The translations under genes were made by a program, and so were the position numbers. This document shows positions 9,593-55,492 of a stretch of 64,000 nucleotides of DNA, piece after piece (position 1 is the stretch's first letter; each line of letters begins with the position of its first letter). The notes beneath the pieces are model-generated. The model saw only the letters and a program-made list of their open reading frames with translations. It did not search any database and was not told the origin of the DNA. The DNA is from Oscillatoria sp. FACHB-1406 (lineage in GTDB: Bacteria > Cyanobacteriota > Cyanobacteriia > Cyanobacteriales > Spirulinaceae), in assembly GCF_014698145.1 (NCBI RefSeq), contig NZ_JACJSM010000001.1, forward strand, positions 24,633 to 88,632, given 5' to 3'.

Positions 9593-10722
9593 GAAATTTT
9601 TGTAGCTAAAATTTGAGCGAGCGTGCGGTTGAATTGTTCGACTCCATACACTTCTATCACTTTTTCTCGTAAATGTTCGGGCTGATACATCAACGGATTG
9701 GGATAAGTTCCTTGTAAAATATTAACCAGCGTTGCCGCAATTTCTTCCACCGAATCCGGATTGACTAACGCGCCTAGTTCTCCCCCTCGCAACGCATCGA
9801 TCGCGCCATCGCAATTTCCCCCTAGCGCCGGTTTGCCGCAAGCCAGCGCCTCCAGGTAAACAATGCCGAATCCTTCCCCTTTAGAAGGCATGGCAAAAAC
9901 ATCGCAGAGGTTATAATAATCCAAAATTTCCTCGTCGGGAACGAATCCCGCGAGGGTGACGAAATCCTGAAGTTGCAAGCCTTCGATTAAACCTTCAACG
10001 CGATCGCGATCGCTCCCCTTTCCGACTAAAATATAATGAATATTGGGGATTTGCTGGCGAATTAACGGTAAAGCAGAAATAATCTTATCGTAGCCCTTAT
10101 ATTGCTCGCTATCGTCGAGGCGAGCGACAGTTAAAATAATTTTTGTATCGGGTTTTAAGCCATAGCGATCGAGCAAGGTTTGAGACTTGGGCGCAATCTG
10201 AAAGCTGCTTGCATCGAAGGTACAAGGAAGAAGAGAAAAGCGTTGCGGATCGAGGTTTTGTTCTTTGAGGAGGCGATCGCGCGTATACTCGCCGATGGAG
10301 ATGATGCGATCGGCATTCTGTAATGCAACTTTTAAACGACGGCGTTGAATATTCCAAGCATCAACGCCATAAACGATTGTCCAATAAGGAATCCCGAACT
10401 GTCGTTTTAACCAATAAGCGGCGGGTGTAAAATTGAGGTGCGTGGTGAGGATGAGATCGGGCTTTTCTACCGCGCCGTAGTACAAAACTTGCGAGGCAAA
10501 CATTAAAGTACGGATGGATAAAGACCACTTTCCCGTACAGTGAAAGCGTAGATTTTCTCGTCGTTCTAACTCTGGCGGGTAGCGCTTATCGTGCTTGAGA
10601 AAAACCTCATAATGCGTTTCGGGCGCGATCGATTGTAAGGCATCGAGAAGGAAGGCTGAATAAACTTGAATGCCACCTTTGAATTCAAAAATGTTGGGGA
10701 ACCAGAGATGACAGCGAAACAT
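9589..10722 (-). CDS. Family-4 glycosyltransferase.
   Basis: GT4 motifs (GEGFGIVYLEALACGKPAL). Start placed at internal ATG (MFRCHLWFP) because the upstream 33 codons are encoded by the TGGATAA repeat array. 4-nt overlap with the upstream GT. Confidence 0.75.
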   Translation of the reverse strand: MFRCHLWFPNIFEFKGGIQVYSAFLLDALQSIAPETHYEVFLKHDKRYPPELERRENLRFHCTGKWSLSIRTLMFASQVLYYGAVEKPDLILTTHLNFTPAAYWLKRQFGIPYWTIVYGVDAWNIQRRRLKVALQNADRIISIGEYTRDRLLKEQNLDPQRFSLLPCTFDASSFQIAPKSQTLLDRYGLKPDTKIILTVARLDDSEQYKGYDKIISALPLIRQQIPNIHYILVGKGSDRDRVEGLIEGLQLQDFVTLAGFVPDEEILDYYNLCDVFAMPSKGEGFGIVYLEALACGKPALGGNCDGAIDALRGGELGALVNPDSVEEIAATLVNILQGTYPNPLMYQPEHLREKVIEVYGVEQFNRTLAQILATKIS

Positions 10723-10960
10723 AATTGATAATTGACAATGGATAATGGATAACGGGATTTTGATAATGGATAACTGGACTTTAACAAAAGATATTTCGTA
10801 GGGTGGGCAGCGCCCACCCACCTTAATTCAACGCTATTCGATAATGGATAATGGGACTTTGAAAACAGTCATGGATAACGAGACATTTCGTAGGGTGGGC
10901 AGCGCCCACCAACCTTAACTCAACGCCATTCGATCTGGATAACGATACTTTGACCAAAGT
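10721..10960. repeat. TGGATAA-type short repeats plus two copies (92-bp period) of a hairpin element ATTTCGTAGGGTGGGCAGCGCCCACC(C/A)ACCTTAA.
   Basis: Direct repeats at 10793-10845 and 10885-10937. ggataatggataa motifs; same family as 55240-55492 and 29672-29700, in inverted orientation. Confidence 0.8.
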
Positions 10961-10989: not shown

Positions 10990-11898
10990 TTAATACTCCT
11001 CCGTTACCCTGTCCCCATCGTTCGGCAGTTCCAAAGGAATTTCGCCCATAATTCCCTTACGAAAATCATTTAAAAACAAAACGGAGACTCGTTCCACATC
11101 GCCGCGATAGCGAGTTTGCGCGAGGTTGTAAATATACTCTTCCCCCGTTAACATTTCCGCTTCGAGTTGATAGCGGGATTTTAATATCTCTGCAAATCCA
11201 AGCTTTATAAGCAAATCAACTAATGCTGCTGCGACGCGCTGATTATCATAAGCCGCTTCGCCAATATCTTCACAAATGGCAAGTTTAACCGCATTCTCTT
11301 GATTTTCCAAACGCCAGGGAATTACGCCCGGTGCGTCCAGAAGCTCGATTTCGTCCGAAATTCGCACCCATTGAAGCTGGCGCGTCACCCCCGCGCGGCG
11401 TTCGCTGCGGACGGCTTTACGCCCGACTAAACGGTTAATCAGCGCGGATTTGCCCACGTTGGGCATCCCAATGACGACAGCGCGCACCGAACGAGGCAAC
11501 ATTCCGCGATCGCGCCGTCGCTGATTCATCGCCACTCCTGCTGCTTGGGCGGCCTTTTTAACCGCATTAATCCCCTTCCCGTGCTTGGCATCGGTAAAAT
11601 AGAGAGTCTCGCCGCGATCGCCAAACTCACTTTTCCACCCCTGTTGCACCGATATCGGGATCGTATCCATGCGATTGAGAACGATCACGCGCGGTTTGTC
11701 GCCAATCCACTCCCTCACTTGCGGGTGGTGAGAGGCGAGAGGAATGCGCGCGTCGAGAACTTCCAGAACGACATCAACGCGCTTGAGTTGTTCTTTGAGT
11801 TGCCGTTCGGCTTTGGCAATATGTCCGGGATACCACTGAATTAGAGCGCTCAAAGTTCCGTTTGCTACCAATAGATCTGTTACAGCATTTTTACACAC
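10990..11898 (-). CDS. rbgA: Ribosome biogenesis GTPase A (YlqF/RbgA), a circularly permuted GTPase.
   Basis: IQWYPGHIAKA N-terminus, permuted order G4 (LNRMD) before G1 (GMPNVGKSALINRL) and G3 (DAPG). The true start may be a non-ATG codon near 11850. Confidence 0.8.
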   Translation of the reverse strand: MCKNAVTDLLVANGTLSALIQWYPGHIAKAERQLKEQLKRVDVVLEVLDARIPLASHHPQVREWIGDKPRVIVLNRMDTIPISVQQGWKSEFGDRGETLYFTDAKHGKGINAVKKAAQAAGVAMNQRRRDRGMLPRSVRAVVIGMPNVGKSALINRLVGRKAVRSERRAGVTRQLQWVRISDEIELLDAPGVIPWRLENQENAVKLAICEDIGEAAYDNQRVAAALVDLLIKLGFAEILKSRYQLEAEMLTGEEYIYNLAQTRYRGDVERVSVLFLNDFRKGIMGEIPLELPNDGDRVTEEY

Positions 11899-13802: not shown

Positions 13803-16800
13803 ATGTCCGAGCAAGGCGATATCCAACAAAGTATTACAGGAAGTGAATACGCGGCGACCTCCGCGACGGGCAATGCCACGATCTCGATTACCAATTACTA
13901 CTATCGAGAAGAAGCAAGATTAGTCCCGTCTGATTCTACCGAAGCTGCTGATGACAATCTCCCCTGTCCTTATCGGGGGTTGTTTCATTTTGGCCCCAAT
14001 GATGCGGATGTATTTTTTGGGCGGGAAATCTTTACCGAAGAACTTTATCGTGCAACTCAAACCCGTAATTTTATTCCGGTGTTAGGTGCATCAGGAAGCG
14101 GTAAATCTTCGGTCGTCTTAGCGGGATTAGTCCCTAAATTGCAAAAAGAAAGGTATTGGAAATTTACTCACTTTCGTCCGGGTGCTGTACCGTTTTATGC
14201 TTTGGCTGAGGCCCTCGTTCCGCTTTATACACCCGAATTAGATGAGACCGAGCAAATTGCCCAAACCCGAAAACTAGCGGATTACTTGCTCGATAGCACT
14301 GTTTCTCTAGCTGATGTTTTAAAAAAAATTAAACAAAATCACCTCAATCATCGGGTGCTACTGATTGCCGACCAATTTGAAGAAATTTACACGCTCTGTA
14401 ATAACCTGGAAATTCGCCGTCAGTTTCTCGACTGCTTATTAGCCGGTTTAGAAACTCCGACTTCTTTGTCTGCATCAGCGACGGTGTTGGTAACAACGAT
14501 GCGAGCAGATTTTTTGGGAAATGCGCTCTCCTATCGTCCCTTTGCTGATGTCTTGCAAAAGGCTGATGTGAAACTGGGGCCGATGAATCGGGGGGAACTC
14601 ACAGAAGTTATTGAAAAACCTGCCCAAAAATTAGGGGTGACGTTTGAGTCGGGATTGGTAGAACGGATTCTCGATGATGTGGAAAACCAACCGGGAAATT
14701 TACCGTTGCTCGAGTTTGCTTTAACTGAGTTGTGGAACAAGCGCACGGGTAAACAATTAACTCACCAAATCTATGAAGCAATTGGTCAAGTAGAAGGTGC
14801 ATTAGCTCGCCATGCGGATGAAAAATATGGCAACTTGACTGATGAAGAAAAAGAAAAAGTTCGGCGAATTTTTATTCAATTGGTGCGTCCGGGGGAGGGG
14901 GCAGAAGATACCAGACGCATCGCCATGAAAGCGGAATTGGGAGAGCAAAGCTGGAGTTTGGTCAAACAATTAGCTGATGCTCGGTTGGTGGTGACAAGTC
15001 GCAATGCTACCAGTCAAGAAACGGTGGAGGTCGTCCATGAAGCGCTGATTCGCAATTGGGGAGAACTGCGAGCATGGATGAATACAAACCGCGATTTTAG
15101 GGCTTGGCAAGAGCGACTGCGGGCAGCAAAAGGGCAATGGGAAGCAACGAATCGAGATTCCGGTTCATTGTTGCGGGGTGCAGCACTAGCGGAAGCAGAA
15201 GAAAAACTGAAAGAACGCCCAGAAGACTTACTCGACGAGCAAGAATTTATCGAGCAGAGTATCCAAGAAGGAAATCGCCTCAAACAAATCGAAGCAGCCC
15301 GCAGGAAGCGCGACATTAGAACAGCTTGGGGGGTGGCGGTGGGTTCGTTGGTGGCGGTGGTGATTAGTGCGGGATTGGGTTTGACGGCATGGAATCAGAA
15401 AAACCAATCGGAACTCAATCAAGCCGAATCTCTGGGTCGATATTCCTTATCTCTATGGAATGAAAATAAACAATTAGAGACTTTTGTCCCAGCAATCAAG
15501 GCGGGAAAAATCCTGCAAAGCCAACACAAAACGAACCCAGAGATCATGAAGGCTTTAGAGGCAGTTCTTGTTCAAGGAAGAGAACGCAACCGCTTAGAAG
15601 GGCATAGTGATGTTGTCATTAGCATCAGTTTCAGCCCCGACGGCAAGACTTTGGCTTCTGGCAGTTCTGACAACACCATCAAACTGTGGAATATCGAGAC
15701 CGGAAAAGAAATCCGCGCCCTCAACGGACATAGTGAATCTGTCATTAGCATCAGTTTCAGCCCCGACGGCAAGACTTTGGCTTCTGGCAGTCGGGATAAG
15801 ACCATCAAACTGTGGAATATAGAGACCGGAACTGTAATCCGCACTCTCAACGGGCATAATAGCCCTGTCATTAGCGTCAGTTTTAGCCCCGATGGCAAGA
15901 CTTTGGCTTCTAGCAGTGATGACCAGACCATCAAACTGTGGAATATAGAGACCGGAACTGTAATCCGCACTCTCAACGGGCATAATAGCCCTGTCAGTAG
16001 CATCAGTTTCAGCCTCGACGGCAAGACCTTGGCTTCTGGCAGTTCTGACAACACCATCAAACTGTGGAATATCGAGACCGGAAAAGAAATCCGCGCCCTC
16101 AACGGACATAGTGAATCTGTCATTAGCATCAGTTTCAGCCCCGACGGCAAGACTTTGGCTTCTGGCAGTGATGACAAGACCATCAAACTGTGGAATATCG
16201 AGACCGGAACTGTAATCCGCACTCTCAACGGGCATAGTGGCACTGTCAGTAGCGTCAGTTTTAGCCCCGACGGCAAGACCTTGGCTTCTGGCAATACAGA
16301 CAAGACCATCAAACTGTGGAATATCGAGACCGGAAAAGAAATCCGCACTCTCATTGGGCATAGTGGCACTGTCAGTAGCGTCAGTTTTAGCCCCGACGGC
16401 AAGACCTTGGCTTCTAGCAGTGATGACAAGACCATCAAACTGTGGAATATCGAGACCGGAACTGTAATCCGAACCCTCAACGGGCATAGTGAGTCTGTCT
16501 ATAGCGTCAGTTTTAGCCCCGACGGCAAGACCTTGGCTTCTGGCAGTGATGACAACACCATCAAACTGTGGAATATCGAGACCGGAACTGTAATCCGCAC
16601 CCTCAACGGGCATAGTGAGTCTGTCTATAGCGTCAGTTTCAGCCCCGATGGCAAGACCTTGGCTTCTGGCAGTTATGACCAGACCATCAAACTCTGGAAT
16701 ATAGAGACGGGAAAAGAAATCCGCACTCTCAACGGGCATAGTGAGTCTGTCAGTAGCGTCAGTTTTAGCCCCGACGGCAAGACTTTGGCTTCTGGCAGTT

Positions 16801-16961
16801 ATGACCAGACCATCAAACTCTGGAATCTTCCAGAATTGGAGCTAGACCCCTTAATGAAGCGTAATTGCGATTTGGTACGCGCTTATTTAACCCATAATCC
16901 TAATGTCAGCGAGAGCGACAGGCACTTGTGCGACGGTATCGGCACGCAAAAAAGCCTGTAA
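13803..16961 (+). CDS. STAND (NACHT-like) P-loop NTPase with an N-terminal BASS-like motif, a single TM helix and 10 WD40 repeats (NLR-like).
   Basis: N-terminal QQSITGSEYAATSATGNATISITNYY; CPYRGLFHFGPNDADVFFGRE; Walker A GASGSGKSS, Walker B LLIADQFEE; TM WGVAVGSLVAVVISAGLGLTAW; ten near-identical 42-aa WD40 units (GHS..V.SVSFSPDGKTLASGS.D.TIKLWN). Confidence 0.9.
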   Translation: MSEQGDIQQSITGSEYAATSATGNATISITNYYYREEARLVPSDSTEAADDNLPCPYRGLFHFGPNDADVFFGREIFTEELYRATQTRNFIPVLGASGSGKSSVVLAGLVPKLQKERYWKFTHFRPGAVPFYALAEALVPLYTPELDETEQIAQTRKLADYLLDSTVSLADVLKKIKQNHLNHRVLLIADQFEEIYTLCNNLEIRRQFLDCLLAGLETPTSLSASATVLVTTMRADFLGNALSYRPFADVLQKADVKLGPMNRGELTEVIEKPAQKLGVTFESGLVERILDDVENQPGNLPLLEFALTELWNKRTGKQLTHQIYEAIGQVEGALARHADEKYGNLTDEEKEKVRRIFIQLVRPGEGAEDTRRIAMKAELGEQSWSLVKQLADARLVVTSRNATSQETVEVVHEALIRNWGELRAWMNTNRDFRAWQERLRAAKGQWEATNRDSGSLLRGAALAEAEEKLKERPEDLLDEQEFIEQSIQEGNRLKQIEAARRKRDIRTAWGVAVGSLVAVVISAGLGLTAWNQKNQSELNQAESLGRYSLSLWNENKQLETFVPAIKAGKILQSQHKTNPEIMKALEAVLVQGRERNRLEGHSDVVISISFSPDGKTLASGSSDNTIKLWNIETGKEIRALNGHSESVISISFSPDGKTLASGSRDKTIKLWNIETGTVIRTLNGHNSPVISVSFSPDGKTLASSSDDQTIKLWNIETGTVIRTLNGHNSPVSSISFSLDGKTLASGSSDNTIKLWNIETGKEIRALNGHSESVISISFSPDGKTLASGSDDKTIKLWNIETGTVIRTLNGHSGTVSSVSFSPDGKTLASGNTDKTIKLWNIETGKEIRTLIGHSGTVSSVSFSPDGKTLASSSDDKTIKLWNIETGTVIRTLNGHSESVYSVSFSPDGKTLASGSDDNTIKLWNIETGTVIRTLNGHSESVYSVSFSPDGKTLASGSYDQTIKLWNIETGKEIRTLNGHSESVSSVSFSPDGKTLASGSYDQTIKLWNLPELELDPLMKRNCDLVRAYLTHNPNVSESDRHLCDGIGTQKSL
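15594..16850 (+). repeat. Ten near-identical 126-bp tandem repeats encoding the WD40 blades.
   Basis: Nucleotide-level repetition (...cagttttagccccgacggcaagac(t/c)ttggcttctggcagt...). Generates spurious long antisense ORFs. Confidence 0.9.
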
Positions 16962-17280: not shown

Positions 17281-17352
17281 AAGGCGACACCCGGATTTGA
17301 ACCGGGGAATAGAGGTTTTGCAGACCTCTGCCTTACCGCTTGGCTATGTCGC
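17281..17352 (-). tRNA. tRNA-Cys (anticodon GCA).
   Basis: Reverse complement folds as a cloverleaf: acceptor GGCGACA/TGTCGCC, D-arm with GG, anticodon stem GAGGT/ACCTC with loop CUGCAAA, T-loop GGTTCAAATCC. CCA not encoded. Confidence 0.85.
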
Positions 17353-17529
17353 CAGACATATAGCTCTGAATTATAACATATAATCTGCCTCTCGATCCAG
17401 CAGTCCGGACGCAGAATTTTGTAACTAATTGTTATGGTGGGTAACAAAGGCTTAACGGCGGTCTGCTGCTGCGATAATCTAGATCGGGTAATTCACAGAC
17501 CGATTTTATTGTTCGAGAGAGCTTGTTCC

Positions 17530-23611: not shown

Positions 23612-23760
23612 AGAGCAACGGCGGGAATTACACCCGCATCACCCGGTATACTCCAGGGCGTTCTGCTGTTTTGAACTACGTTGCAGTTGGCAGCGGGCTG
23701 ACTCAAACAGCCATATGAAAAAAGCAAACAAGGAACGCTTTACCCTTAAGCTACACTGCC
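23612..23760 (-). ncRNA. tRNA-like unit 1: acceptor, D and T arms conserved, no anticodon stem; followed (3') by a conserved roughly 80-nt module.
   Basis: 5' GGCAGTG-TA-GCTT..AAGC and GGCTG-TTTGAGT-CAGCC-CGCTGCC-A seen in reverse complement. Anticodon region replaced by a 24-nt unstructured segment. Confidence 0.5.
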
Positions 23761-23800
23761 TTATTTTTCCTATTCTACAACCCATACAACAATACACCAA

Positions 23801-23948
23801 GAGCAACGGCGGGAGTTACACCCGCATCGCCCGGTATACTCCAGGGCGTTCTACTGTTTTGAACTACGTTGCAGTTGGCAGCGGGCTGACTCAAACAGCC
23901 TATTTCCCGTTTGGAAGACGGGCGCTTTATCCCTTAAGCTACACTGCC
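23801..23948 (-). ncRNA. tRNA-like unit 2: complete 73-nt cloverleaf with anticodon UCC (Gly-like) and a non-canonical T-loop TTTGAGT (tRNA part 23876-23948), plus the conserved 3' module.
   Basis: Hand-folded: acceptor 7 bp (one G-U), D-stem GCTT/AAGC, anticodon stem CCCGT/ACGGG with loop CUUCCAA, T-stem GGCTG/CAGCC, discriminator A, no CCA. Confidence 0.55.
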
Positions 23949-23970
23949 TTATATTCCCTATTTTATCGAG

Positions 23971-24118
23971 AGCAACGGCGGGAGTTGCACCCGCATCACC
24001 CGGTATACTCCAGGGCGTTCTACTGTTTTGAACTACATTGCAGTTGGCAGCGGGCTGACTCAAACTCGCCACCTTCCCCGCTTGCTGGCGGGGCGCTCTA
24101 CCGTTAAGCTACACTGCC
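23971..24118 (-). ncRNA. tRNA-like unit 3: 8-nt anticodon loop, disrupted T-stem, plus the conserved 3' module.
   Basis: Same acceptor/D-arm as units 1 and 2; anticodon arm CCCCG-CCAGCAAG-CGGGG. Confidence 0.45.
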
Positions 24119-24123
24119 GAGTG

Positions 24124-25203
24124 TTACCATTCTACTTCTGCGTAATCCTTATAAAACTGCCCGAAGCGATCCCGCCCTTCATTCAAACTGACAAAGATTG
24201 GGGCGCAAATGCGCGCGGCAGCATCGATATAATCGAAGGAAAGTTTAACCCCTCGCGATCGCATTCCTTCAACTTGGGGATGGGGATGTTGGAAACTCAC
24301 CCAACCCGGATCGACACAGTTCATATAAATGCGATATCGAGCGTATTCTTTAGCACAGGTGCGCGTCATCATGTGCAGCGACGCTTTCGCCATATTAGTA
24401 TGCGGATGTCGCCAAGGTTTCTCCACGCCGTTAAAGCGTCCTTCCATTGAAGAAACGTTGATAATGTACTTTTTATCATCGGGATGGGCTTGCATTAAAG
24501 GTTTGAGGCGACTGTTGAGAATGAAGGGCGCGATCGCGTTAATTAAATGCACCTCCAACAGTTCCAAAATACTCACTTCATCGTCCTTCATCAACCAACT
24601 ATTAAAAGGGCGAAAGTCGAGTTGTTCTCCATCTTCTCCCAATTCTCCCGGCGGAAAAAAGGCTAAATCTTCTTCAAATTCAGCCAGATTATTAGCAGCA
24701 GGAGGAAGCGCGAGTAATGGTTGTAATTGGGGTGGAAGTTGTTGCATTTCCGCCGCTTCTAAAGAACGGTAAAAAGCCGCAGGACGGCGCACGGTTTGAG
24801 CCGCGTTATTAATAATAATATCGAGTCGAGGAAAATGGTTGCGAATGTGGTAAGCAAATTGTTCGACAACAGCGGGATTCTTAAGATCGAGGCTATAAAT
24901 CGAAAGGCGATCGCGCCATTGCTCGAAATCCTCTTCCCGCGCGTAACGTTGCGCTGCATCGTTGGGAAAGCGCGTCGTTGCGATGACTTGCGCCCCCGCT
25001 CTCAATAACTTCAATGTTACTGCACGACCGATTTTAACTCTTGCCCCGGTTACTAAAGCAATTTTCCCTTGTAAATCTGCGGTTTGTTCGCGTTGAATTT
25101 GATTGAAATCGCCGCAGGAAATACACAATCCGGGATAAAAATTATGGGGTCGATCGACAAAGGCTTTACAGATGTAGCAACGTTGGCTTTTCTTGTCCGT
25201 CAT
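24124..25203 (-). CDS. SDR-family NAD(P)-dependent oxidoreductase with an N-terminal Cys-rich (zinc-ribbon-like) segment.
   Basis: CYICKAF ... CISCGDF Cys pairs; Rossmann motif KIALVTGARVKIGRAV. Start chosen at the ATG forming an ATGA overlap with the upstream pentapeptide gene. Confidence 0.75.
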   Translation of the reverse strand: MTDKKSQRCYICKAFVDRPHNFYPGLCISCGDFNQIQREQTADLQGKIALVTGARVKIGRAVTLKLLRAGAQVIATTRFPNDAAQRYAREEDFEQWRDRLSIYSLDLKNPAVVEQFAYHIRNHFPRLDIIINNAAQTVRRPAAFYRSLEAAEMQQLPPQLQPLLALPPAANNLAEFEEDLAFFPPGELGEDGEQLDFRPFNSWLMKDDEVSILELLEVHLINAIAPFILNSRLKPLMQAHPDDKKYIINVSSMEGRFNGVEKPWRHPHTNMAKASLHMMTRTCAKEYARYRIYMNCVDPGWVSFQHPHPQVEGMRSRGVKLSFDYIDAAARICAPIFVSLNEGRDRFGQFYKDYAEVEW

Positions 25204-26474
25204 TGTTTTGTGCCATCCGGCATTGTACTGTTCCAAAAATGGATGTGGCTCAATTCAATCCCAAAAAGATTCGCCCCCGTTAAGTCGCTCTCCCACAACG
25301 CCGTATTATAACAGTTTGCTCCCATCAAATCTGCATTTTTTAAATTGACCCGATTAAAGTAAATCTGACTCAAGTCTGCCCCAATTAAATTTGCCCCGCT
25401 CCAGTCTGCATCCCCAACCCTACAGCCGGTAAAATCAGCTTCAATGGCACTCATTCCGGTTGCTAAAGTTCCTTCGAGATTCGCTCCTTTAAGTCGAGCG
25501 CGATCGAAATTTGCGCCTTGTAAGTTAGCACTTTGAAGATCGGAATTTTGAAGTTTAGCCTCGCTGAAGTTTAACCCGTCAAGCGTCGAGTTTTTAAAAT
25601 TCGCTCTTTTTAAGTTAGCGCGACTAAAGTTGACATTATTCATAACCTTCGTACTAAAATCGACATCGGATAAATTAGCAGAACTGAGATCGGCTCCCTC
25701 AAGCTCTGCATTATTCATTTTCGCAGATTTTAGATTAATCGATTTAAGGTTACATCCGGTTAAATTAGCACGCTCAAAGCTCGCGCGTTCAAAGGTGGTA
25801 CGATCCAGTTTAATATTCGTAAAATCGACTCCATAAAGGTTCGCTTTTGTAAACCTCGTTCGTCTCAGGAGCGCACCGTCAAATTTTGTATAACTTAAGT
25901 TAGCACCCGAAAAATTAATTTTGTAAAAATACCTGTCGCTAAAGTCAAATTCACTTAAATTTGTTCTTTTAAAATTGACTTCCTGCAAGTTCGTTTCGGT
26001 TAAAATGCTTCCTTCTAAGTTAGCGCGGCTGAGGTTTGCTCCGCTTAAGTTGGCATTGCTCAAATCTGCCTCTCTGAGGTCTGTTTTGTAGAGTTTAGCC
26101 CCGCTCAAATCTGCCCCGCTTAAATCTGCACCTCGAAGATTGCATTCGCGAAAATTAACTTTCTTTAAATCTTTCCCCCGTAAGTCTACGCCACTGAGAT
26201 CGGCTTCCCAACCGTCGAGATAAACGGTTATCGCTCGCCATTTATTCCAAGTTTGAACGCCTTGGGATAGCAAAAAAATTAAGTCCGATCGCGTGACAAA
26301 GCGCTTACAAGCAACTTCTCTTACCCACTCGATTTCATCGTGCAGCGATCGCGCGGCTAATTCCAACCCCGCCTCGCCATAATCGCCCAATTTCTCCAGC
26401 GCCGCAACCCGTTCTTCCGCTATCGTGCTATTGAGGCATTCTTGCAATTGTTCTAATGTTTCGCGATCGGACAC
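25200..26474 (-). CDS. Pentapeptide-repeat protein with an N-terminal HEAT-like helical region.
   Basis: Long run of A(D/N)LxG-type pentapeptides (ADLSGADLSGAKLYKTDLREADLSNANLSGANLSRANLEG ...). Confidence 0.85.
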   Translation of the reverse strand: MSDRETLEQLQECLNSTIAEERVAALEKLGDYGEAGLELAARSLHDEIEWVREVACKRFVTRSDLIFLLSQGVQTWNKWRAITVYLDGWEADLSGVDLRGKDLKKVNFRECNLRGADLSGADLSGAKLYKTDLREADLSNANLSGANLSRANLEGSILTETNLQEVNFKRTNLSEFDFSDRYFYKINFSGANLSYTKFDGALLRRTRFTKANLYGVDFTNIKLDRTTFERASFERANLTGCNLKSINLKSAKMNNAELEGADLSSANLSDVDFSTKVMNNVNFSRANLKRANFKNSTLDGLNFSEAKLQNSDLQSANLQGANFDRARLKGANLEGTLATGMSAIEADFTGCRVGDADWSGANLIGADLSQIYFNRVNLKNADLMGANCYNTALWESDLTGANLFGIELSHIHFWNSTMPDGTKQ

Positions 26475-26566: not shown

Positions 26567-27484
26567 ATGCTAAAATCGGAAATTCAAAATCTCCCTAGCA
26601 GCGCCGAACTGCCCTGTTCGGACGACACCCCCGTGGATAACGAAGAACAAAACTTTATTCCCAACTTCCTCTTATTTTTACTCGAATATATTTGGGGCGA
26701 TCGCCAAGATTGGTTTTTTGGAGTCGATATGGCGGTGTATCACACTAGCGGAGAAAACCCTCGCATTCCCATTATCCCCGACGGATTTTTAGCTCTCAAC
26801 GTCGAACGGCGTAAAGGCGGACAATCGCGCAGCAGCTATGTGATGTGGGAAGAAAGCAACGTCGTACCTATCCTGGCGCTTGAAGTCGTCTCTCAAACCC
26901 CCGGAGGAGAATACAGCAGCAAAGAAGAAATCTATGCCAAGTTAGGCGTGTTGTATTACATCGTCTATAATCCCCGGCAATTTGGAGGCGGCCGCCACCG
27001 AGGATTAGAGGTGTATAAATTAGTTAAGGGAAAGTATAGCTGGCAGGTGCAAGAACCATTCTGGATGCCAGAAATTGGCTTAGGAATCGGTCGGAGTATC
27101 CGTAATTATCGGGGAGTAGAAAGAGAGCTTTTATACTGGTTTGACGAGCAAGGCAATCGCTATGCTGGTACGGAGGAGGAATTGGACATCGCCCGACAAC
27201 GGGCAGAACGAGAACGGGAACGGGCAGAACGAGAACGGGAACGGGCAGAACGAGAACGGGAACGGGCAGAACGAGAACGGGAACGAGCCGAAACAGAGCG
27301 ACAACGGGCAGAACGAGAACGGGAACGAGCCGAAACAGAGCAGCAGCAGCGAGAATTTGCCCAACAACAAGCCGAAACGGAACGACAACAGGCAGAAAAA
27401 GAACGACAACTGCGCGAACAACTGCAACGAGAACTCGAACGCTACCGCCAGCAACTAGGCGATCTATCCGAACCGCCGAATTAG
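26567..27484 (+). CDS. Uma2-family (DUF820) restriction-endonuclease-like protein with a C-terminal E/R-rich repeat tail.
   Basis: PD-(D/E)xK-like core (PDGFLALNVE ... LALEVVSQTP ... YAKLGVLYYIVYNP), then about 100 aa of RAERERE repeats encoded by a 21-bp periodic DNA repeat. Confidence 0.7.
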   Translation: MLKSEIQNLPSSAELPCSDDTPVDNEEQNFIPNFLLFLLEYIWGDRQDWFFGVDMAVYHTSGENPRIPIIPDGFLALNVERRKGGQSRSSYVMWEESNVVPILALEVVSQTPGGEYSSKEEIYAKLGVLYYIVYNPRQFGGGRHRGLEVYKLVKGKYSWQVQEPFWMPEIGLGIGRSIRNYRGVERELLYWFDEQGNRYAGTEEELDIARQRAERERERAERERERAERERERAERERERAETERQRAERERERAETEQQQREFAQQQAETERQQAEKERQLREQLQRELERYRQQLGDLSEPPN

Positions 27485-55239: not shown

Positions 55240-55492
55240 GACAATGGATAATTGATAATGGACAAAGTTCGTACAAATTAATTGCTCTTTATATTGTCCA
55301 TTATCCAAGACGTTATCCATTGTCAATTATCCATTACCCAAGACGTTATCCATTATCCAAAACGTTATCCATTGTCCATTGTCAATTATCCATTACCCAA
55401 GACGTTATCCATTGTCCATTGTCAATTATCCATTACCCAAGACGTTATCCATTGTCAATTGTCAATTATCAATTATCAATTATTCCTTCCCC
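55240..55492. repeat. Tandem array (about 4 units of about 40 bp) of TTATCCATTGTCCATTGTCAATTATCCATTACCCAAGACG-type repeats.
   Basis: Directly readable. Related short copy at 29672-29700 and inverted copy at 10721-10790. Confidence 0.85.

Follow-up and report, generated by a model that had tools for sequence, protein, structure and literature searches.

Paired tRNA-like elements with a constant body and a changing anticodon arm beside an atypical SDR gene of filamentous cyanobacteria

What kind of RNA is encoded by the three tandem tRNA-like units that directly follow a gene for a protein of the SDR (short-chain dehydrogenase/reductase) family in the cyanobacterium Oscillatoria sp. FACHB-1406? 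The units lie within a 64,000-nucleotide stretch of contig NZ_JACJSM010000001.1 (positions 24,633 to 88,632 of the forward strand; assembly GCF_014698145.1), which was analyzed as a whole and is referred to below as the window. A previous, sequence-only reading described them as three minus-strand repeats with a common acceptor stem, D arm, T-loop UUUGAGU and discriminator A, without an encoded CCA and with a conserved 3' extension of ~80 nt, and all of these features are indeed present. Our analysis reveals a conserved RNA unit of two genes, present here in three tandem copies and composed of two tRNA-shaped elements arranged head-to-tail, of which we call the first A and the second (the former "3' module") B. 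The conservation of the 3' extension had been recognized correctly (95-96% identity among the window copies), but its nature had been missed: it forms a second tRNA-like cloverleaf, namely B.

On the minus strand, from 24118 to 23613, the three A-B units comprise six tRNA-shaped elements (Table 1). Tandem Repeats Finder and a repeat finder reported start-to-start distances of 169 and 188 nt between the units, which share a 101-nt core with 93-97% identity, and the stop codon of the SDR gene (24124-24126) ends 5 nt ahead of A1, exactly as described before. The similarity among the A copies is unevenly distributed: the 5' part is 88-96% identical and the T arm with the 3' acceptor strand 88-100%, while the anticodon arm and the variable loop reach merely 27-60%, in agreement with the earlier remark that the anticodon region is the most variable part. 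The only intact A in the window is A2, which was identified by ARAGORN as tRNA-Gly(UCC) and exceeds the Rfam tRNA threshold of 29 bits; folded alone, it adopts a perfect cloverleaf as its minimum free energy (MFE) structure (z = -2.99), with the anticodon loop CUUCCAA (UCC), the T-loop UUUGAGU and the discriminator A73, and its CCA is not encoded. The sequence-only reading had also pointed to one unit with an 8-nt anticodon loop and a disturbed T stem and to another without an anticodon stem, and both were recovered: A1 has an abnormal anticodon arm with an 8-nt loop (CCAGCAAG; alternatively, a 6-bp stem and a 6-nt loop) and one surplus base in the T stem, and in A3, which has no anticodon stem, a U-rich unpaired stretch of 23 nt replaces the anticodon arm and the variable loop. 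B1, B2 and B3 are all intact, and B1 begins 2-3 nt past the discriminator of A1. For comparison with the ordinary tRNAs of the genome, the canonical tRNA-Cys(GCA) gene of the window was used as an internal control.

The comparative sample consisted of the window and the genomic contexts of eleven further SDR homologues, ten of them cyanobacterial, and covers loci rather than whole genomes. tRNA-like elements were found beside the SDR gene, on the same strand, in 11 of the 11 cyanobacterial lineages sampled (the window counted); ten of these carry one to three A-B pairs, and one distant lineage (L022) carries solo hybrid elements. The tie to the upstream SDR gene, suspected from the window alone, is confirmed as a feature conserved across the sampled lineages. 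The SDR homologues encoded beside A-B units share 54-71% identity; the nearest homologues of the window SDR are ~67% identical, and the named ones all come from filamentous cyanobacteria. The usual gene order is a pentapeptide-repeat gene, the SDR gene and (A-B)n, and the remaining neighbor genes change at nearly every locus; the metallophosphoesterase gene downstream of the array in the window and the GTPase gene beyond it are not conserved neighbors at the other loci.

Table 1. Positions of the elements and genes of the array, of related loci in other genomes and of phage tRNAs with a B-type elbow (window coordinates unless a locus is given; anticodons in brackets after A)
Feature or locus	Coordinates or source	Strand	Observations
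Pentapeptide-repeat protein gene, HEAT-like N-terminus	25200..26474	-	Pfam Pentapeptide
SDR-family gene, 359 aa	24124..25203	-	Pfam adh_short; family alignment; structure model and fold search
-10-like TAGAAT	24129..24134	-	16 nt 5' of A1, within the last SDR codons
A1	24045..24118	-	37.0 bits Rfam tRNA; acceptor, D and T arms conserved; fold and alignment
B1	23970..24042	-	35.3 bits Rfam tRNA (permissive search); 89.0 bits B covariance model
-10-like TAAAAT	23960-23965	-	ahead of A2
A2	23876..23948	-	73-nt cloverleaf; 60.5 bits Rfam tRNA (threshold 29); ARAGORN tRNA-Gly(tcc)
B2	23801..23873	-	90.1 bits B covariance model; MFE structure is a cloverleaf
-10-like TAGAAT	23772-23777	-	ahead of A3
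A3	23688..23760	-	38.7 bits Rfam tRNA, 19-nt insert unaligned; fold
B3	23613..23685	-	91.3 bits B covariance model
Control tRNA-Cys(GCA)	17282-17353	-	68.1 bits; canonical, T-loop UUCAAAU, CCA not encoded
L006	metagenome contig		A(UCA)-B, starts 10 nt past the SDR stop
L008	metagenome contig		A(CUC)-B
L009	Aerosakkonema		A(CAU)-B; degenerate pair; third pair A(UUC)-B 3 kb off
L016	Calothrix NIES-2098		three pairs: CAU, GCU, UUC
L018	Oscillatoriaceae Prado104		one pair: UUC
L020	cyanobacterial contig, distant SDR		three pairs (UGC, UGC, UUC) beyond an intervening leucine-rich repeat (LRR) gene
L021	Nostoc FACHB-152		one pair, 5 nt past the stop as in the window; A arm degenerate
L022	distant AT-rich lineage		two solo elements 5' of SDR; A-like anticodon loops (CUC), B-like elbows
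L025	Oscillatoria PMC 1051.18		additional tRNA-like element (CGG), then A(UUC)-B
L075	metagenome contig		two pairs: irregular loop; GAC
B-elbow phage tRNAs	L030 149-223		viral contig
B-elbow phage tRNAs	L042 4304-4376		viral contig
B-elbow phage tRNAs	L047 6680-6755		viral contig
B-elbow phage tRNAs	L049 2158-2390		viral contig
B-elbow phage tRNAs	L053 2928-2998		viral contig

Searches beyond these loci returned little. A metagenome scan with the A-B junction identified one new true locus (L015), one duplicate and three chance matches. A scan of a genome collection with a pattern combining the T-loop of A and the D arm of B reported only chance matches in coding sequences; the pattern was over-strict, given that relatives have a different D-loop in B, and the collection apparently does not include the source genome. 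BLAST searches of the units against plasmid and phage collections gave no match, which argues, within the limits of those collections, against the array being a plasmid or phage element. Diagnostic 21-mer and 26-mer oligomers had exactly three matches each in the whole 64 kb window and none in shuffled sequence, and no additional copies were detected there or in ~220 kb of related loci outside the syntenic arrays; the known copies are syntenic with SDR, and over this range the earlier suggestion of a SINE-like dispersed repeat is not supported. As a separate observation, in L018 the A-B pair is flanked on both sides by near-identical long hairpin repeats (GTTTGTAGTG.GGACTTCAGTCCGC...; 11220-11290 and 11742-11800), which resemble a miniature inverted-repeat element and may be responsible for the 400-nt gap between SDR and the pair.

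The structural assignment of both elements is supported by covariation. Eighteen copies of A were aligned by hand to the cloverleaf, with gaps also placed by hand; 95.5% of the cells are paired as opposed to 29-53% with slid partners, counts that are biased toward the structure because of the manual gap placement. Changes on both sides were found in 15 of 21 pairs of A, all 5 anticodon-stem pairs among them. For B (17 copies from 10 genomes) the corresponding values are 93.8% versus 40-52%, with 9 of 21 pairs changed on both sides. We conclude from these comparisons that the structures of A and B are both selected. Because the stems also covary among homologues in other genomes, the possibility that they are only apparent can be set aside. 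An alternative model of the B anticodon arm with a 6-nt loop was rejected, with zero compensatory changes and a failure in L020, while the model with a 7-nt loop and a U·C mismatch is accompanied by compensatory changes at two pairs. The covariance model built for B retrieved 17 of the 17 B copies with 78-96 bits and assigned at most 48 bits to everything else in 223 kb; A copies received 25-45 bits and the tRNA-Cys of the window was not detected. Since covariance models recognize the elements, the proposal of a tRNA-derived RNA family with non-canonical members stands.

A has the features of a class-I tRNA, in which the acceptor stem (GGCAGYG/CGCUGCC) and A73, as well as the D arm (GCUU-AAUGGUA-AAGC) and the T-loop with U56, are nearly invariant across genera. 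The anticodon arm and the variable loop are entirely different from copy to copy across genomes. The Gly-like UCC of A2 was read correctly, but it is just one of at least nine anticodons found at this site of A across the genomes: UUC is present in 5 intact copies, CUC in 3 (with the solo elements counted), CAU in 2, UGC in 2, and UCC, UCA, GCU, CGG and GAC in one each. The loops of the intact copies exhibit U33 in almost all cases, a purine at position 37 in all, and C32 and A38 in most. The UUC copies combine the loop CUUUCAC with a 4-nt variable loop, which we take to be as in tRNA-Glu, and the arm of the UGC copies is presumably that of tRNA-Ala (both judged by E. coli sequences). The neighboring Calothrix copies L016a and L016b differ at 4 of ~76 positions, two of them within the anticodon (CAU versus GCU), while both keep C32, U33, A37 and A38, and the L015 copy has a GCC anticodon in a loop shortened by a 1-nt deletion to 6 nt; because of these cases, the anticodon itself seems to be the part of A that changes. 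Several copies have no usable anticodon arm in an otherwise intact body (A1, A3, L009b, L015, L021 and one in L075).

The constant part of A was compared with known identity elements. The bacterial tRNA-Gly set comprises U73, G1-C72, C2-G71, G3-C70, C35 and C36 (PMC9976931, Table 1). A2 agrees with it only in G1-C72, C35 and C36, and has A73, G2-C71 and C3-G70, contrary to the Gly determinants. Neither is the universal elbow set (G18, G19, T54, Psi55, C56) complete in A2, in which U56 replaces C56; the same replacement is present in every A copy from Oscillatoriales and Nostocales with the exception of L025A and L025X. The A(UGC) copies have no G3·U70, and A(GCU) has no long variable arm. Judged by these elements, the constant acceptor end of A is mismatched to the anticodons to which it is joined.

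B follows A at a distance of 0-3 nt across the loci and is more strongly conserved than A, with a mean column identity of 82% in 17 copies. Its acceptor stem has 6-7 bp, with (U/A)GCAACG paired to CGUUGCU; the D arm (GUUC/GAAC) has a loop without GG, i.e. without G18G19, and the T arm (GCGGG-UGYAAYU-CCCGC) has G55 in the T-loop. The anticodon-like arm consists of a 5-bp stem with a U·C mismatch at the second pair in 16 of 17 copies and of a 7-nt loop (G-A-G-Y-W-K-A) in which A33 is nearly invariant. The discriminator is unconstrained (A, C, U or G). B has the four-helix cloverleaf of a tRNA, but neither U33, nor a fully paired anticodon stem, nor a fixed discriminator. Because of A33, the stem mismatch, G55, the missing G18G19 and the free discriminator, B does not look like a decoder, nor does it look like an aminoacylation substrate. 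Scans of viral contigs with patterns derived from B identified no true B; they retrieved apparently normal phage tRNAs that share its elbow (a D-loop without GG, the T-loop UGCAAUU and G55), with D and T arms nearly identical to those of B, for instance a tRNA-Lys(UUU) with a CCA end. The B-type elbow seems to recur in phage tRNA arrays, and B may have descended from a phage-type tRNA with such an elbow.

The SDR protein itself is atypical. It possesses an N-terminal zinc ribbon (CxxC...CxxC), which we conjecture to be compatible with RNA binding, and a long insertion of variable length. Throughout the family (the window protein and homologues P0001-P0120) an invariant RHPHTNMAK is found at the classical YxxxK site; as T-N-M-A-K, preceded by H-P-H, takes the place of YxxxK, the catalytic Tyr is replaced by Thr. 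The protein retains NNAAQT and has the glycine motif TGARVKIG (classical: TGxxxGxG, NNAG and Ser-Tyr-Lys). The predicted fold is that of a classical SDR, generic FabG-like reductases were reported as the best sequence and fold matches in PDB, and no NCBIfam family reached its cutoff for this protein.

The stop codon of the preceding pentapeptide-repeat gene overlaps the start of the SDR gene (ATGA, 25200-25203), which suggests that the two are translationally coupled. A homologous HEAT-plus-pentapeptide gene lies 5' of SDR in the window, L006, L009, L016 and L018. Matches of the pentapeptide protein to the "Alr5209 family" of NCBIfam look like generic repeat matches and were discarded. At Nostocales-type loci (L016, 6602-11155; L015, 7075-11091) the pentapeptide gene is preceded by genes for a MoxR-type AAA+ ATPase and a DUF2201 protein, the latter composed of a metallopeptidase and a vWA-like domain. 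In L020 (11122-12906) and L026 (9158-10384), which encode the two most distant SDR homologues examined, an LRR gene is found directly 3' of SDR, in place of the preceding pentapeptide gene. A solenoid repeat protein may be a constant partner of the SDR protein.

As to expression, a TANNNT hexamer is positioned at -13 to -18 from A in 14 of 20 units across genomes, including internal units and all three units of the window. A strict two-hexamer promoter scan of the window gave no match, so that the promoter evidence amounts to a positional -10 signal only. No terminator was found in the window between the SDR gene and the array. L025 has an intrinsic terminator after B, and the first solo element of L022 is followed by a hairpin and a U run that resemble a terminator. 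Obligatory co-transcription with SDR, as envisaged in the sequence-only reading, is not supported, given that 14 of 20 units have their own -10-like hexamer and that the L022 elements lie upstream of SDR. Seven A copies in L006, L009 and L016 end in GCC-A-CCA, the last A of which doubles as nucleotide 1 of B; these three nucleotides are ACU, not CCA, in L008 and the window. We propose that every unit would have a promoter of its own and give rise to a dimeric precursor, and that RNase P would cut at the 5' ends of A and B, the B-side cut also making the 3' end of A, whereupon RNase Z or the CCA-adding enzyme would complete the maturation to two stable small RNAs. A dimeric precursor with two RNase P cut sites is known for cyanobacterial tRNA-Thr/tRNA-Tyr of Synechocystis (mentioned in PMC6202907).

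The A-B family appears to be undescribed: a literature search, with sequence queries included, revealed no account of the A-B pair or of its link to SDR, most papers in subscription journals being outside the scope of the search, and Rfam recognized the elements as weak tRNAs only, with no other family matched. With canonical tRNAs and their dimeric precursors (RF00005) they share four covarying helices and scores above the Rfam tRNA threshold; intact A copies have the ordinary 7-nt anticodon loop with U33 and purine 37, and the head-to-tail arrangement of A and B with nearly no spacer is that of a dimeric tRNA precursor. They differ from canonical tRNAs in that the body and discriminator of A are fixed for any anticodon, with mismatched identity elements, in the presence of U56 in A and of G55, A33, the U·C mismatch, a free discriminator and no G18G19 in B, and in that the family retains armless copies and a conserved genomic tie to one protein family.

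Non-proteinogenic and pseudo-tRNAs provide another comparison, in particular the Staphylococcus tRNA-Gly isoacceptors for peptidoglycan bridges and tRNA-Other of Bacillus cereus (PMC3399842). Like the A-B elements, these have a tRNA shape with an altered D-loop/T-loop elbow and occur in addition to normal isoacceptors; their role is known or supposed to lie outside decoding, which for A-B we infer. Unlike A-B dimers with their many anticodons, they are single and of one specificity, and the proteins that act with them, Fem transferases and others, have no relation to SDR. Together with protein-partnered tRNA mimics such as Y RNAs (PMC4201824), they are the nearest functional analogies.

A different kind of resemblance is offered by the L-arrays of Anabaena PCC 7120 and other bacteria, which comprise up to 43 different tRNA genes and are horizontally spread and often plasmid-borne (PMC8421152). 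L-arrays and phage tRNA arrays resemble the A-B arrays in being extra tandem tRNA genes, some of them defective, with many anticodons, and those of phages contain the B-type D-loop/T-loop variant. Unlike L-arrays, with their individual bodies, the A-B arrays consist of one to three strict repeats with a common body, chromosomal and syntenic with SDR; the window contains six tRNA-like elements of only two types, with no plasmid or phage BLAST match, and does not qualify as an L-array.

YrlA (RF02553) and other mimics associated with Rsr/Ro60 are similar in that a tRNA-like module is encoded beside the gene of its protein partner. The YrlA model matched with 23.1 and 19.8 bits (gathering threshold: 69), spanning the B-to-A junction, and this match is explained by the chance adjacency of a T arm, an acceptor stem and a D arm in neighboring cloverleaves; a junction of this kind is absent from most loci, where only one pair is present. 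The A-B elements differ from YrlA in having no Ro-binding stem, and no TROVE/Ro gene was found among the Pfam-annotated genes of the examined loci. Matches to a tymovirus tRNA-like structure, to a group II intron and to other Rfam families, all sub-threshold, are likewise side effects of adjacent cloverleaves, and neither ARAGORN nor Rfam reported a tmRNA in the window, two-piece forms included. As regards a protein partner of the SDR type, the human mitochondrial RNase P subunit MRPP2 (SDR5C1/HSD17B10) is an SDR-fold protein that works on tRNA in an RNA-processing complex and thereby demonstrates that an SDR protein can partner with tRNA, although its homology with the window SDR is no more specific than the SDR fold.

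We favor the view that A and B are a paired family of non-canonical tRNAs or tRNA-like RNAs, independently transcribed, processed from a dimer and acting with the SDR operon outside ordinary decoding, a proposition that we regard as evenly balanced. The role of the RNAs would be that of a partner, substrate or regulator for the neighboring SDR system, with A as an anticodon-specific handle, mostly of the Glu type, and B as a constant module. The functional link of the A-B pairs to SDR is what we infer from the conserved gene neighborhood alone. Several observations weigh against this proposal. Most intact A copies have a normal 7-nt loop with U33 and purine 37, and these loops, together with the authentic-looking anticodon arms, fit real decoding just as well; the B-type elbow alone is compatible with a use in translation, since it is found in apparently normal phage tRNAs. 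Moreover, the A-B pair of L015 follows a pentapeptide gene with SDR absent, one pair of L009 (8596-8740) is located away from SDR, and one SDR homologue, on a high-GC and apparently non-cyanobacterial contig, precedes an LRR protein gene and has no tRNA-like neighbor.

One alternative would be that the A copies are supernumerary genuine decoding tRNAs, possibly of phage or array origin, which act as a back-up under translational stress, supply particular codons or deliberately mis-decode, with B as a processing helper or a derelict tRNA-Tyr-like gene and with an SDR proximity of purely historical nature. The presumed likeness of the A arms to those of tRNA-Glu and tRNA-Ala (in E. coli sequences) is in its favor, as are the 13 intact A copies with 7-nt loops, nearly all with U33 and purine 37, the CCA encoded in many of them, the promoter-like -10 boxes at the units, the phage arrays whose tRNAs have the unusual elbow of B, and the fact that accessory tRNA arrays responsive to translational stress are known in cyanobacteria (PMC8421152). 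We nevertheless consider it unlikely: the acceptor stem and discriminator are the same for any anticodon, with identity sets unmatched for UCC, UGC and GCU, and C56 is replaced by U56 in the Oscillatoriales and Nostocales copies other than L025A and L025X; where the anticodon arm is destroyed, the body and the B partner are still perfectly conserved, B is conserved beyond A yet unfit to decode, and the SDR association persists across orders while other neighbors change. The destroyed arms (two of the three A copies in the window, and copies in L009, L015, L021 and L075) could also be taken as a sign that the array is evolutionary debris, i.e. an odd tRNA gene with decaying duplicates, gene conversion and chance proximity to SDR, and the greater similarity of copies within an array than between genomes would agree with this, suggesting concerted evolution. 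Such a history is nonetheless hard to reconcile with the compensatory changes that uphold all four helices of A and of B across genera and with the 82% identity of B at loci where the SDR proteins share just 54-71%; with SDR association in all 11 of the cyanobacterial lineages sampled also opposing it, we find it extremely unlikely.

The proximity to SDR could alternatively reflect a cis-acting role in the pentapeptide-SDR message, whose 3' end would be defined or stabilized by RNase P or RNase Z cleavage at the elements, after the model of tRNA punctuation or of MALAT1-mascRNA, and with the released small RNAs as by-products. The first A indeed begins 5-63 nt past the SDR stop in six lineages (exactly 5 nt in two), and no terminator intervenes in the window. 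This explanation is, however, weakened because the L022 elements lie upstream of SDR, with the first of them apparently self-terminated by a hairpin and U run, and because A-B pairs without SDR exist. The elements of L018, L020 and L025 are 150-1900 nt away from SDR (in L020 with a gene in between), internal units have -10-like boxes of their own, and a cleavage signal would need no anticodon-loop signatures, anticodon shifts or two distinct cloverleaves, all of which makes a cis role quite unlikely. A constant scaffold with fast-varying, authentic-looking arms and with substitutions concentrated in the anticodon would also be expected of decoys or sponges for proteins that read anticodon arms (anticodon nucleases, tRNA-targeting toxins, GluRS/GluTR), in which case the operon would be a conflict or regulatory system; the MoxR-type AAA+ ATPase and DUF2201 pair adjoining the Nostocales cluster and the LRR protein paired with SDR in two lineages belong to gene types common in conflict systems (PMC7159879). 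The examined neighborhoods contain no conserved nuclease or toxin gene, though, and decoys would leave both B and SDR unexplained, as well as the retention of copies without any anticodon arm, so that we rate this possibility as very unlikely. A more specific function, to which we likewise assign a rather small probability, would be that A is a dedicated non-ribosomal aminoacyl carrier, charged by the host synthetase via its tRNA-like anticodon arm, mostly with Glu, and that the SDR protein is an NAD(P)H enzyme dependent on aminoacyl-tRNA, perhaps held on the constant B, e.g. a reductase comparable in its role to glutamyl-tRNA reductase. If true, this would mean a new tRNA-dependent metabolic or signaling pathway in filamentous cyanobacteria.

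The window contains other repeats, recorded here for completeness. A 126-nt tandem unit is present in 9.7 copies with 89% identity at 15600-16826, and its length and content suggest highly similar WD40 repeats in one coding region. Tandem repeats of 21 and 42 nt (AACGGGCAGAACGAGAACGGG) occupy 27194-27410 within an open reading frame (26567-27484) with a Uma2-type endonuclease domain. Heptamer-based tandem repeats of the GATAATG and TTATCCA families, with at most 25 copies, are found at 10721-10953 and 55293-55483 and are reminiscent of the short tandemly repeated sequences of cyanobacteria.

Annotation pipelines are likely to call these elements tRNA-Gly, -Glu, -Met or -SeC, as ARAGORN did with A2, and such calls would distort tRNA gene counts and inferences on codon usage in these genomes. 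Few RNAs of tRNA shape are known to have a role outside translation, and every such discovery has led into new biology, as in cell-wall synthesis, Y RNAs and tRNA-dependent natural products. The A-B pair is a conserved and readily recognized RNA family of ecologically important filamentous cyanobacteria, with an unusual combination of properties: two cloverleaves strictly joined in one unit, repeated exchanges or shifts of the anticodon arm on an unchanging body, and an atypical zinc-ribbon SDR as the fixed genomic partner. If the link to SDR is functional, it would offer a testable entry to a new RNA-protein system and would assign a role to a widespread, hitherto uncharacterized SDR family.

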